This document shows, in pieces, positions 3,423 through 48,339 of a stretch of DNA of 64,000 bases. Both the position numbers and the translations under genes were made by a program. This DNA is from Nanobdellota archaeon (GTDB taxonomy: Archaea; Aenigmatarchaeota; Aenigmatarchaeia; Aenigmatarchaeales; SZUA-1535): positions 7 through 64,006 of the forward strand of contig DQVX01000016.1 in NCBI GenBank assembly GCA_015661515.1, given 5' to 3'. Below the pieces are notes generated by a model. The model was not told where the DNA came from and ran no database searches. It saw only the letters and a program-made list of their open reading frames with translations. The stretch's first letter is position 1, and every line of letters starts with the position of its first letter.

Positions 3423-4601
3423 TTACACCAAAGGTCCGAAAAAGCTGTAAAGAAGTATGGAAAGTATAAAAAACGAAATTATTTTTGTTATTTTAATAGC
3501 TTGTTCTTCGCTTAACTTTTCTTCTAGAATAGCTTTAATCATATGCCCACCATCTAAAGGATAAAGAGGAAGTATATTAACTACAGCTACAGCAAAACTT
3601 AAAAGTGATAAAATTGCAAGAAATTTAAATAAAAATTCAAAGCCATTGCATTTAGTTCCAACAACAATGCCTATAAAAGGAGCTTTCTCTATTTGTGGAT
3701 GTTCTCCCAAAGTTACAGTAAAATTGCCTTTATCCGTTTCTATTACTATACTATCTCCAGGTTTAAAAGTATAATTAGAAAAACTCCAATTAGTTAAAAT
3801 TCCTACTAAATAAATTCTTGCTGCAACATCTTCTGGATTTTGTTTTGCTAGCACAAAATTTGAGTAAAAACCAAAATCGAAAAATAGTTCTTTCCCATTA
3901 ATGCTTTTTATTATCATACCTTCTTTTATTCCGGCAAGCTCTGCAGGAGAATTTTCAACAACTTTTTTTACATATACTCCATCTACCAAGAAAAACCATA
4001 AATGAGATGCTAATAGAAATACTAAGAATGATACTACAATATTTGCAAAACTTCCTGCTGAAAAAACTCTAAGCTTTGCTATAAGTTTCTTTCTTTTTAA
4101 CTGCTTTTCATCAGGCTCTACAAATGCTCCTGGAAAAATTAAAAAAAGTAATAAACCTACAGATTTTAATCTTATTTTCTCAACCCTTGCCATTATTCCA
4201 TGAGCAAATTCGTGTGGAAACAGAATAAAGAAAATTGTTAATATCCATATCCAAAAAGGAAGAAATATATGAGCATAACCTATTTCAGCATTTTTTACAG
4301 GAGCTGGAAGTACAAGCTTTATTCCTGATTCTTTTATTTCATCTTTTGCAACTCTTACAGCATTTTCTATAAGGTAAAAAACTCCAAAAAACATGAAGTA
4401 AAAGCATATAATTATACTAATAATTCCTATTATTTTCCATGCACGCGGAGATTTTTTAGCAATTCTATCTATTATTTCAATAAATCTTTTAGTTTTATAA
4501 AGAACTACTAGACCTTCAACTTCTATTTTTTCTCTTTTTTTCCATATGGCAATTCCAACAAAAACTATAAAAGCTATAATTGAAAGTGTGTGAAAATCCA
4601 T
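3423..4601 (-). CDS. site-2 protease (M50 family, RseP/S2P-like) with PDZ domain
   Basis: HExxH sits in a TM helix ('FPHEFAHGIMA'). The second metal-ligand motif 'LPLYPLDGGHM' is present. Multiple TM segments. Confidence 0.8.
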   Translation of the reverse strand: MDFHTLSIIAFIVFVGIAIWKKREKIEVEGLVVLYKTKRFIEIIDRIAKKSPRAWKIIGIISIIICFYFMFFGVFYLIENAVRVAKDEIKESGIKLVLPAPVKNAEIGYAHIFLPFWIWILTIFFILFPHEFAHGIMARVEKIRLKSVGLLLFLIFPGAFVEPDEKQLKRKKLIAKLRVFSAGSFANIVVSFLVFLLASHLWFFLVDGVYVKKVVENSPAELAGIKEGMIIKSINGKELFFDFGFYSNFVLAKQNPEDVAARIYLVGILTNWSFSNYTFKPGDSIVIETDKGNFTVTLGEHPQIEKAPFIGIVVGTKCNGFEFLFKFLAILSLLSFAVAVVNILPLYPLDGGHMIKAILEEKLSEEQAIKITKIISFFILSILLYSFFGPLV

Positions 4602-9781: not shown

Positions 9782-9892
9782 GCCCCGGTAGCTCAGCTGG
9801 TTAGAGCGGTCGCCTCGTAAGCGACAGGTCGAGGGTTCGAAAATAAGTATAATATTTTCTAGAATTTTCAGAAACTCCCTCCCGGGGCTCCA
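9782..9892 (+). tRNA. tRNA-Thr(CGT) with a non-canonical ~34-nt intron in the T-loop; CCA encoded
   Basis: Acceptor 'GCCCCGG/CCGGGGC'; D-arm 'GCTCAGCTGGTTAGAGC'; anticodon arm 'GTCGC CTCGTAA GCGAC' (anticodon CGT); T-stem 'GAGGG...CCCTC'. The T-loop 'TTCGAA' is interrupted by 9842..9875 before T60. Confidence 0.8.
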
Positions 9893-42074: not shown

Positions 42075-42171
42075 AGCGGGGTAGGGCAGCCAGGAGTGCC
42101 CGCCGGGCTCATAATATATTATTTAATGAGACACCCGGAGGTCGGTGGTTCAAATCCACCCCCCGCTACCA
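42075..42171 (+). tRNA. initiator tRNA-Met(CAT) with canonical 19-nt 37/38 intron; CCA encoded
   Basis: A1:U72 acceptor pair ('AGCGGGG/CCCCGCT'); three G-C pairs at the base of the anticodon stem ('CCGGG/CCCGG'); loop 'CTCATA|A' split by intron 42114..42132; T-arm 'GGTGG TTCAAAT CCACC'. Confidence 0.85.
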
Positions 42172-42172
42172 T

Positions 42173-42682
42173 TTAAACAACTACTATTTCAATAGGTTTT
42201 TCAAAAATTGTTTCTACAACTTGTTTTACTAAGTTTTCATCTATTCTTTTAACGTAGCTTTCAGGAATTCTTATTTTATATTTTATTTCACCATCTCTTT
42301 TATACAAAATATTAATACCTTCTATACTTGCAGGAAAAACTAAATTATTTAGAAATTCTTTAAGATCTTCACTAAATTCAATTACTTTTACAGGTTGTTT
42401 AAATTCTTTTGAAAGAAGTTTTGCTATTGTGCCGTTTCTGCCTATTATTTTAGAAGCATCTCCTTTACGCGCTATTATTATTATGTTTTCATTTGTTTTT
42501 ACTACTTTATAAATTTGTGCATCTTTAAGTACTTTGAATTTTTCTTTTAAAGATTCTAAAAATTTTGCAACTTCTATGTCTATTTTTTCAAGCTTACCTT
42601 TTCTAAGTTTTTCTTCACAAACAGGACAAAATACTTCTGATTTTAAACATATTTCACATATTTCTTTATGAATCGACGGCAT
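42173..42682 (-). CDS. RNA-binding protein with N-terminal C4 zinc ribbon and KH domain
   Basis: 'CEICLKSEVFCPVCEE' ribbon; 'KIIGRNGTIAKLLSKEF' KH GXXG loop; 169 aa. Confidence 0.5.
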   Translation of the reverse strand: MPSIHKEICEICLKSEVFCPVCEEKLRKGKLEKIDIEVAKFLESLKEKFKVLKDAQIYKVVKTNENIIIIARKGDASKIIGRNGTIAKLLSKEFKQPVKVIEFSEDLKEFLNNLVFPASIEGINILYKRDGEIKYKIRIPESYVKRIDENLVKQVVETIFEKPIEIVVV

Positions 42683-42740: not shown

Positions 42741-42917
42741 GCCGAGGTAGCTCAGCCTGGTTAGAGCGCCAGACTCATAAGCTTTGCTTATGAGTGATGA
42801 GTTTGCCGAGTAATGAGGCAACGATGAATAGCAGGCTGAGAACTGAGATATCTGGAGGTCGCGGGTTCAAAAACTACAGCCCTTAAACAAAGCTTGAAAC
42901 TCCCGCCCTCGGCACCA
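42741..42917 (+). tRNA. tRNA-Met(CAT) (elongator or Ile2-type) with two introns: 70-nt canonical 37/38 intron and 29-nt T-loop intron; CCA encoded
   Basis: Acceptor 'GCCGAGG/CCTCGGC' (G1:C72); D-arm 'GCTCAGCCTGGTTAGAGC'; anticodon arm 'CCAGA CTCATAA ... TCTGG' with intron 42781..42850; T-arm 'GCGGG TTCAAA[42872..42900]T CCCGC'. Confidence 0.8.
42794..42846 (+). ncRNA. box C/D sRNA embedded in the 37/38 intron of tRNA-Met
   Basis: C 'GUGAUGA' (42794-42800); 13-nt guide; D'-like 'UGAG' (42814-17); C'-like 'CGAUGAA' (42822-28); 14-nt guide; D 'CUGA' (42843-46). The spacing matches archaeal C-12-D'-x-C'-12-D architecture. Confidence 0.6.
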
Positions 42918-42943
42918 TTTTATTTTATTCCTTGCGCCGGTAG

Positions 42944-43068
42944 TCTAGTGGTAGGACCCCGGCTTCCCAAGCCGGTGACCCGGGTTCGAAAGAAAACAAA
43001 AATATAAAATAGAGATTGAAGTAATTTTTCCTTTATCTTTTTGGCCGAATCTCCCGGCCGGCGCACCA
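42944..43068 (+). tRNA. tRNA-Gly(CCC) with ~61-nt T-loop intron; CCA encoded
   Basis: Acceptor 'GCGCCGG/CCGGCGC'; anticodon arm 'CCGGC TTCCCAA GCCGG'; T-arm 'CCGGG TTCGAA[42991..43051]T CCCGG'. Confidence 0.75.
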
Positions 43069-48180: not shown

Positions 48181-48339
48181 GGGCCCGTAGCTCAGCCTGG
48201 TAGAGCACCGGGCTTTTAGCGTTGAGCTAAAAGCTCGCTAAGCCGTAAGGCGATGGCGAAAGCGGAAGATACCCGGGAGTCGCGGGTTCAAAATTAAAAG
48301 TGGAAAAATTATTAAATGAAACTCCCGTCGGGCCCACCA
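48181..48339 (+). tRNA. tRNA-Lys(TTT) with two introns: 52-nt 37/38 intron and 30-nt T-loop intron; CCA encoded
   Basis: Acceptor 'GGGCCCG/CGGGCCC'; D-arm 'GCTCAGCCTGGTAGAGC'; 'CCGGG CTTTTA[48219..48270]A CCCGG'; T-arm 'GCGGG TTCAAA[48293..48322]T CCCGT' with a G:U closing pair. Confidence 0.75.

Follow-up and report, generated by a model that had tools for sequence, protein, structure and literature searches.

A predicted box C/D guide RNA in the anticodon-loop intron of an archaeal elongator tRNA-Met gene

Intron-encoded methylation guides have so far been treated as largely a peculiarity of archaeal pre-tRNA-Trp, whose intron particle guides the formation of 2'-O-methylcytidine at position 34 (Cm34) and 2'-O-methyluridine at position 39 (Um39) (Clouet d'Orval 2001; Singh 2004), together with one unexplained tRNA-Met case in Nanoarchaeum equitans. 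In this archaeon, a stable and abundant RNA derives from the 66-nucleotide (nt) intron found in its elongator tRNA-Met. It contains box D and box C elements and was counted as the 27th box C/D small RNA (sRNA), with no predicted target (Randau 2012, Genome Biol 13:R63, PMC3491384). Archaeal elongator tRNA-Met is known to carry Cm34, which box C/D particles introduce on the intron-containing precursor, and the guides described for it, Pyrococcus sR49 and haloarchaeal sR-tMet, are separate genes. Apart from the N. equitans report, our literature searches turned up no account of an intronic Cm34 guide for tRNA-Met. Here, we focus on a 64,000-nt stretch of contig DQVX01000016.1 from a Nanobdellota archaeon (referred to as the window), in which the anticodon-loop intron of an elongator tRNA-Met gene encodes, as judged from its sequence, a box C/D guide RNA. 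This RNA is the homologue of the stable N. equitans intron RNA, and it belongs to a kind that is already known. The first-pass annotation of the window, which had proposed a box C/D guide sRNA in this intron, overlooked the published N. equitans RNA.

The tRNA-Met(CAU) gene is located on the plus strand at positions 42741–42917, with an encoded CCA end and exons at 42741–42779, 42850–42871 and 42901–42917. Without its two introns it forms a perfect 78-nt cloverleaf that ARAGORN identifies as tRNA-Met(cat), and it is of the elongator type, with G1:C72 and without the three anticodon-stem G-C pairs that mark initiator tRNAs. The 70-nt anticodon-loop intron (42780–42849, plus strand) occupies the canonical 37/38 site between A37 and A38, and as an A is present at both flanks the bounds 42781–42850 are equivalent. 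It reads A GCUUU GCUUAUGAG / GUGAUGA / GUUUGCCGAGUA / AUGA / GGCAACG / AUGAAUA / GCAGGCUGAGAA / CUGA / GAU, where the first G of GUGAUGA is also the last G of GCUUAUGAG. Four boxes were assigned, all on the plus strand: box C (GUGAUGA, 42794–42800, of which the last four bases AUGA are 42797–42800), box D' (AUGA, 42813–42816), box C' (AUGAAUA, 42824–42830, with a conserved RUGA, R being a purine, and a degenerate 3' half) and box D (CUGA, 42843–42846). Box C is followed by the 12-nt D' guide GUUUGCCGAGUA (42801–42812), box D' by the 7-nt linker GGCAACG (42817–42823) and box C' by the 12-nt D guide GCAGGCUGAGAA (42831–42842). The first-pass annotation had named the same boxes C and D, but had read UGAG (42814–42817) and CGAUGAA (42822–42828) as the internal boxes, with spacers of 12–14 nt. 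Both strings are present. The comparison with relatives described below places the internal boxes at AUGA and AUGAAUA instead, with which both guide spacers are exactly 12 nt. AUGA was preferred to UGAG as box D' since it retains the GA that the sheared pairs require, at a spacer of 12 nt. A further CUGA at 42836–42839, which is aligned as box D in Rfam family sR11, was dropped, as the 12-nt spacing is preserved to the distal box alone in relatives that have just one CUGA.

When both strands of the 64-kilobase window were searched with a regular expression describing the canonical archaeal architecture (C, 10–13 nt, D', 2–9 nt, C', 10–13 nt, D), 42794–42846 was the sole match, and 30 block-shuffled copies of the window gave zero matches. 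All Rfam box C/D matches were below threshold. The best was Pyrococcus sR11 (RF01150; 27 bits versus a gathering threshold of 39, E-value 0.017), the alignment of which spans the whole element and shares UUUGCC in the same slot, and sR7 and sR3 scored lower. Because the Rfam box C/D models are guide-specific, a sub-threshold score is no argument against membership of the class. The window also encodes fibrillarin, which is the methyltransferase in box C/D particles, at 511–1173, as the first-pass annotation stated, though on the minus strand (Pfam PF01269, E-value 2.9e-72). The intron RNA would assemble with L7Ae, Nop5 and fibrillarin.

To compare the intron with its orthologues we used three sources: contigs with adjacent homologues of the KH-domain protein that neighbours the gene (60–78% identity), a scan of representative genomes with an exon-only pattern, which covered introns of about 44–74 nt, and a metagenome scan. 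Synteny with the KH neighbour revealed orthologous tRNAs only in loci L005–L007, which are the closest, and in L010, where the tRNA is offset from the gene. In loci L008 and L009 the neighbours are different ones. Loci L131 and L142 are metagenome contigs Ga0256834_1040654 and Ga0256834_1024212, respectively. The anticodon-loop intron is nearly invariant in L005, L007, L010 and L133, where the neighbouring protein is 60–78% identical. Six distinct introns of the long type found in the window were aligned. Across these six lineages the anticodon complement UAUGAG, boxes C, D' (AUGA) and D, the AUGA of box C' and bases 1–11 of the D' guide (42801–42811) are all invariant, whereas the guide base adjacent to box D' (N+1, 42812) is A, U, G or C across four lineages. 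In L131 and L142 the CGAUGA of the window is replaced by CAAUGA, and therefore AUGA, rather than the upstream GA, is the conserved core of box C'. The 12-nt slot of the D guide contains three unrelated sequences among the six lineages, those of L131/L142 and of L090 differing from that of the window, and the 12-nt spacing is kept even where the sequence differs. Invariant boxes and D' guide, a free N+1 base and a changing D guide are the pattern expected of a guide RNA, and the boxes and the D' guide are evidently under strong purifying selection.

These motifs could also have arisen by chance or as by-products of splicing, with the complementarity being intron–exon pairing for the bulge-helix-bulge motif. 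The first-pass annotation had pointed to orthologous introns that lack conserved boxes while keeping the flanking complementarity as the sign of such an origin. Box D does have a second reason to be conserved, as its CUGA overlaps the UGAG needed to pair with CUCA of the anticodon loop. However, of these elements the splicing motif requires only the 3' UGAG. The anticodon complement on the 5' side is not needed and hides the 5' splice site in a helix, and splicing needs neither boxes C, D' and C', nor 12-nt spacings, nor an invariant D' guide. The second intron of the same gene, which lies in the T loop (59/60; 42872–42900, plus strand) and has no box motifs, is also spliced but shows no such conservation: it is unalignable among L005, L007, L131, L133 and L142 and varies from 29 to about 85 nt. 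Given the 60–78% identity of the neighbouring protein, the relatives are not near-identical strains. The orthologous introns thus keep all four boxes and the D' guide while the T-loop intron diverges, which favours a guide RNA, and we consider an origin by chance or splicing very improbable indeed. The guide sRNA proposed in the first-pass annotation is upheld by the four boxes kept in orthologues and by a pattern that is unique in the window.

The D' guide likely directs 2'-O-methylation of a conserved cytidine in 23S rRNA. GUUUGCCGAGUA pairs with the archaeal 23S consensus GGGAACUCGGCAAAUUGG over 11 base pairs (bp), ten of which are Watson–Crick pairs and one a G-U pair, from N+2 to N+12. 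In N. equitans, the D' guide of sR21, GAGUUUGCCGAUUA, is predicted to pair with 23S AAAUCmGGCAAAUUG at position 1790 (PMC3491384), and the supplement of that study gives sR21 as AUGAAGA GUUUGCCGAUUA CUGA UUA GUGAAGA AACCAGGCGCUG CAGA. The window guide is one base apart from GUUUGCCGAUUA, with G for U at N+3, and has the same N+5 cytidine. This G fits the consensus C; in N. equitans, a U of the guide faces an A at this position. The consensus GGGAACUCGGCAAAUUGG is found in Pyrobaculum, Thermoproteus, Sulfolobus and Ignicoccus and the variant GGGAAAUCGG in N. equitans and Methanopyrus, and guides M5, P38, N21 and T51 are annotated at this 23S site in four species (Dennis 2015 supplement). Guides for the site (...AACUCGGCAAAU...) include N. 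equitans sR21, Pyrobaculum calidifontis sR38 and Thermoproteus tenax sR51, and possibly Pyrococcus sR11 (RF01150) as a further one. The predicted methylated base is the C before GGCAAA, at approximately A1666 of Escherichia coli 23S rRNA. In the host, the predicted target is ACUCGGCAAA (site stretch AACUCGGCAAAUU), and the D' guide would direct methylation of the cytidine that precedes GGCAAAU in ...AACUCGGCAAAU..., the equivalent of N. equitans 23S-1790. Its action would be in trans and would probably follow excision of the intron.

The first-pass annotation had instead aimed the D' guide at the acceptor stem of the host tRNA. The complementarity between GCCGAG (42805–42810) and acceptor CUCGGC (42908–42913) is present, and addition of U42804–A73 extends it to 7 bp, but with a shuffle probability of about 1.8% the match is weak. 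All long-type relatives share an identical acceptor stem, which makes covariation uninformative here. GCCGAG belongs to a sequence found in 23S rRNA as well. Because the same guide matches a known 23S methylation site over 11 bp, the acceptor is almost certainly not a target, and the 6–7 bp match is probably incidental. A separate observation concerns L029 (Woesearchaeota JAGVYS010000007.1), where a stretch of 17 nt on the minus strand (3745–3761), GUUUGCCGAGUAAUGAG, is identical to the D' guide and D' box. We rejected it as a guide, as it falls within what looks like a coding frame, has no C box near it and is probably a coincidence; a match of this length is nonetheless unexpected for about 1 megabase of sequence.

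For the D guide, the first-pass annotation had proposed the D loop of the same tRNA. Guide bases CAGGCUGAG (42832–42840, N+3 to N+11) are perfectly complementary over 9 bp to CUCAGCCUG in the D arm (42751–42759, plus strand, C11–G18), a candidate target in which N+5 would be C13. These nine Watson–Crick pairs are contiguous and include N+5. When guides were shuffled, a duplex of at least 9 bp including N+5 was found in 0.06% of cases with the host tRNA (p about 6e-4) and in 0.28% with any of six window tRNAs (2.8e-3). The same D-arm 9-mer recurs in the D arm of tRNA-Lys(UUU) (48191–48199), and D-loop-directed box C/D guides have been predicted or observed in archaea, at G18 of Sulfolobus tRNA-Gln and C16 of Pyrococcus tRNA-Gln. 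CUCAGCCU is absent from the rRNAs of the seven archaea in the Dennis 2015 alignment, where the nearest matches are 8-mers. All this speaks for an intron RNA that methylates the body of its own tRNA, with the D guide directed at C13 in the D arm and the D' guide at about C69 in the acceptor. However, the D loop is CAGCUGG in seven of seven relatives, and against this loop the four of them that have an identical D guide lose pairing, retaining six Watson–Crick pairs and one G-U pair with one mismatch. Compensatory changes in the guides, which the first-pass annotation had suggested looking for, were found in none of these four. L131/L142 and L090 have unrelated D guides in the same slot, the acceptor match (p about 0.02) is far weaker than the pairing to 23S rRNA, and neither Cm13 nor Nm69 (a 2'-O-methylated nucleotide at position 69) is among the modifications that one published paper reports for archaeal tRNAs. 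Methylation of the tRNA body by its own intron is thus quite unlikely in our view, and host-specific self-targeting by the D guide is not supported: the 9-bp complementarity is real, but its status as a target is uncertain. The D guide may methylate C13 in trans in D arms bearing GCUCAGCCUGG (those of tRNA-Met and tRNA-Lys here), or it may have an rRNA target or no target at all. Two rRNA candidates, neither of them conserved or better than the D arm, were rejected. N. equitans 16S GUCAGCCUGUG offers eight Watson–Crick pairs and one G-U pair, but the pairing starts only at N+4, and GUCUCAGCCC in helix 35a of Pyrobaculum 23S is an 8-nt match.

Two further features of the D-guide slot were observed. 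Positions 42836–42849 form a 7-nt tandem repeat, CUGAGAA CUGAGAU, which covers the last part of the D guide, as well as box D and the helix at the 3' splice site. In L090, L131 and L142 it is present as one copy. The repeat contributes the CUGAG of the D-arm complementarity, and part of this match may have originated by duplication. In L131 and L142 the D guides, AGGUUAGAAGCG and GGGUUAGAAGCG, are similar to the D arm of the host in its sense strand, GGUUAGAGCG, apart from an additional A. Their complement, CGCUUCUAACC, may correspond to the anticodon loop of a tRNA-Arg(UCU) precursor, with U34 at N+5.

Directly 5' of box C lies GCUUAUGAG (42786–42794, plus strand), the complement of C32–A37 and the first three bases of the intron. 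In this pairing G42792 is opposite C34 (42776), five bases upstream of the AUGA at 42797–42800, i.e., at N+5, and this AUGA sits in the register of the CUGA, UUGA or xxGA boxes of related introns. The parallel with the archaeal pre-tRNA-Trp intron that was drawn in the first-pass annotation is apt, although the annotation had overlooked this element, which places C34 at N+5 and most resembles the tRNA-Trp case. No second guide for position 39, as in pre-tRNA-Trp, was found in the intron. The hairpin between guide and anticodon is the minimum-free-energy fold of the anticodon arm with the intron (−25.0 kcal/mol). In this fold A31–U42795 extends the anticodon-complement helix to 10 bp, UUGCC (42803–42807) and GGCAA (42817–42821) form a closing hairpin, and the 5' splice site is buried. 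The intron-side extension of the helix covaries in relatives (AGC/GCU, GC/GC and AGCCG/UGGCU), and in L090 GCAAGC pairs with GUUUGC, by which the closing stem is kept in another register. The splicing fold (−19.4 kcal/mol in a constrained fold) is 5.6 kcal/mol less stable. In it CUCA (42774–42777) pairs with UGAG (42844–42847), with 3-nt bulges UA/A and AU/A, and box D overlaps this UGAG, the 3' strand of the central helix of the bulge-helix-bulge.

It is moderately likely that GCUUAUGAG guides Cm34 of its own pre-tRNA in cis before splicing. GCUUAUGAG would base-pair with the anticodon loop of its own precursor, while AUGA (42797–42800) and GAUGA (42823–42827) would form a kink-turn (K-turn) closed by the G/UUGCC–GGCAA/C hairpin. 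The C box would then act as a D-type box, the D' guide would be hidden in the K-turn stem, and C34, five base pairs from the K-turn, would become Cm34. Because the 5' splice site is buried in a helix of the guide fold, splicing could follow only once this fold had given way to the bulge-helix-bulge fold. On a more tentative reading, the RNA would refold after excision and serve as a canonical dual-guide box C/D RNA for the methylation of 23S rRNA.

Next, we looked for this module in other archaea. Among the matches listed, long-intron tRNA-Met genes were found in Micrarchaeota, Woesearchaeota, Nanoarchaeota, Nanohaloarchaea, Aenigmatarchaeota, Hadesarchaea and N. equitans, whose gene the genome scan recovered as L059. 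Most share an anticodon complement, two bases, an xxGA box, a closing hairpin, one base and RUGA. The module is intact in the window, where the D' guide and D' box lie in the stem and loop of the closing hairpin. K-turns were called without the anticodon complement, by a tightest-hairpin rule that replaced a first caller, rejected because it mistook the AUGA within UAUGAG for a box. A K-turn was found in 61 of 80 distinct long tRNA-Met introns (about 44–74 nt), a phylogenetically related sample drawn from the matches listed and mostly from DPANN archaea (Diapherotrites, Parvarchaeota, Aenigmatarchaeota, Nanoarchaeota and Nanohaloarchaeota). In 53 of these 61 K-turn introns C34 is paired with the base at N+5, inside a duplex that is at least 5 bp long, compared with 2.6% after shuffling of the upstream sequence. 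The first box is AUGA in 29 introns, CUGA in 10, UUGA in 6 and another sequence in 8; only its GA is constant, and it is therefore D-type in its likeness. Of the cells in the closing stem 96.9% are paired; both sides are changed in 8, 8 and 17 sequences, and each position has four or five pair types. The K-turn caller demanded two closing pairs, so that only the third stem pair is an independent test. The helix often crosses the splice site with covarying pairs. Among the matches listed, the module is absent from introns of Thermoplasmatota, Bathyarchaeia, Thermoproteota and Jordarchaeum.

The breadth of the module also bears on a purely structural explanation, in which the boxes are L7Ae-binding K-turns that stabilise the excised or circular intron, or that delay or license splicing. 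A single K-turn with no second pair of boxes is the layout of many short-type introns, and the N. equitans intron RNA had no predicted target, as might be expected of a structural element. The guide hairpin and the splicing fold are mutually exclusive, and the overlap of box D with the central helix of the splicing motif points in the same direction. However, a structural role leaves unexplained both the placement of C34 exactly at N+5 in the majority of K-turn introns and an invariant 11-mer D' guide that matches an rRNA methylation site with N+1 alone free. We consider a structural role on its own unlikely.

Some introns have additional features. In seven short-type loci from Woesearchaeota and from metagenome-assembled genomes labelled Methanosarcinales (L028, L048, L070, L084, L098, L121 and L126), a sense copy of the anticodon loop (CUCAA, CUCAU or CUCAG) lies past the C-type box. 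This copy could pair with the guide of the intron and free the anticodon loop for the splicing fold, a possible built-in conformational switch. In the window itself, tRNA-Lys(UUU) (48181–48339) has a 52-nt anticodon-loop intron (48219–48270) with a 9-nt complement of its anticodon loop, GCUAAAAGC (48226–48234). This is followed by UCG, CUAA, a GCC-GUAA-GGC hairpin and GAUGG, which resembles a K-turn with non-standard AA/GG for GA/GA. The base at N+5 from CUAA pairs with C32, and this intron may thus contain a second intron-borne guide, for Cm32.

Taken together, we find it rather probable that the anticodon-loop intron is a functional four-box C/D RNA, with a D' guide for 23S rRNA, an anticodon complement that directs Cm34 in cis, and a D guide for which the D arm of the tRNA is the best match. 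A broader model, which we put forward as tentative, would have DPANN tRNA-Met introns be single-K-turn half guides for Cm34 in cis, across DPANN and in at least one Hadesarchaea genome, with a bifunctional, fold-switching RNA in the lineage of the window. Besides the limits of the K-turn sample and caller given above, several points weigh against these readings. No curated Rfam family matches the intron at gathering threshold, and the 23S target was derived from a literature alignment of other archaea rather than from the 23S rRNA of the host lineage, as the retrieved loci contain neither 16S nor 23S rRNA. The Cm34 K-turn reuses boxes C and C' and thereby competes with the canonical C/D and C'/D' pairings, and support for the closing hairpin in long-type introns comes from only two sequence variants. 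We know of no tRNA-Met for which a single-K-turn cis particle has been demonstrated. The competition between folds weakens the Cm34 model, but it could instead mean that the RNA adopts two successive conformations. Finally, the guide for Cm34 of pre-tRNA-Met has been stated to be 'always exonic', i.e., encoded outside the intron (Grosjean 2008); a cis-acting intronic guide, if true, would contradict this generalisation.

The tRNA-Met case is now seen to be conserved and selected in hydrothermal Nanoarchaeota, and in this lineage the intron appears as a guide with the full set of four boxes, in which an rRNA guide is combined with an anticodon-directed module. Dozens of tRNA-Met introns, mostly from DPANN archaea, have an anticodon complement at a fixed N+5 from a K-turn, and this breadth may be a more interesting result than the four-box guide. 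If the cis model is true, reduced genomes would keep a long tRNA-Met intron to make Cm34, which restricts the CAU anticodon to AUG, and the module would be a natural minimal guide particle with a single K-turn that acts in cis.

Other tRNA genes in the window (30% G+C) are also interrupted. ARAGORN with default settings found zero tRNAs in the 64 kilobases, and initiator tRNA-Met (tRNA-iMet) was the sole tRNA reported by Rfam at gathering threshold. A motif search and inspection by eye located the others. Because of their introns, five of the six tRNA genes escape standard tRNA finders. A/T-rich introns at T-loop position 59/60 are present in five of the six, tRNA-Thr(CGU) (9782–9892), tRNA-Met(CAU) (42741–42917), tRNA-Gly(CCC) (42934–43068), tRNA-Lys(UUU) (48181–48339) and tRNA-Gly(GCC) (54845 to about 54970). 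They begin directly past GGUUCRAA and are wholly dissimilar in sequence and length among relatives. Only tRNA-iMet (42075–42171) is without one; it has a 21-nt intron with no box motifs. The CCA end is encoded in these genes, leaving aside tRNA-Gly(GCC), of which the 3' end was not read. tRNA-iMet and tRNA-Met flank a gene for a 169-amino-acid protein (42173–42682) with a NusA-like KH domain (PF13184, E-value 1.7e-9), which had nine protein matches, its own cluster among them, in a search of 5.8 billion sequences. tRNA-Met and tRNA-Gly(CCC) are also adjacent in L005 and L006, and in L007 they are on the same contig with a longer spacer.

Among known systems, the closest is the N. equitans intron RNA, which shares its phylum, tRNA, intron position and 5' module with the RNA described here. 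The module reads GCUAUGAG-CU-CUGA-CCC GAAA GGG-G-AUGA in N. equitans and GCUUAUGAG-UG-AUGA-G(U)UUGCC...GGCAAC-G-AUGA in the window. In N. equitans the intron has just one K-turn (CUGA / GGAUGA), after which comes a GC-rich hairpin, whereas the window intron has four boxes, 12-nt spacers and a D' guide predicted to be directed at rRNA, a guide that N. equitans keeps in the separate gene sR21. Stability has been shown for the N. equitans RNA, while the window RNA is known from its sequence alone. As in pre-tRNA-Trp, the guide lies in a 37/38 intron and is complementary to the anticodon region of its own tRNA with C34 at N+5, and the guide fold is incompatible with the splicing fold. Unlike pre-tRNA-Trp, the host is tRNA-Met, the anticodon complement lies 5' of box C rather than between C and D', and the intron has a canonical D' guide apparently aimed at rRNA instead of a guide for position 39. 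Pyrococcus sR49 and haloarchaeal sR-tMet (Joardar 2011) have the same predicted product, Cm34 on the precursor, and pair into the intron. They are encoded by separate genes, whereas the guide element of the window is intronic. sR-tMet is also said to have an unconventional K-turn. In the same way, sR21, sR38 and sR51 are free-standing genes, whereas the window D' guide is embedded in a tRNA intron. A guide that is separate in N. equitans and intronic here fits the view of box C/D genes as elements that enter and leave tRNA introns.

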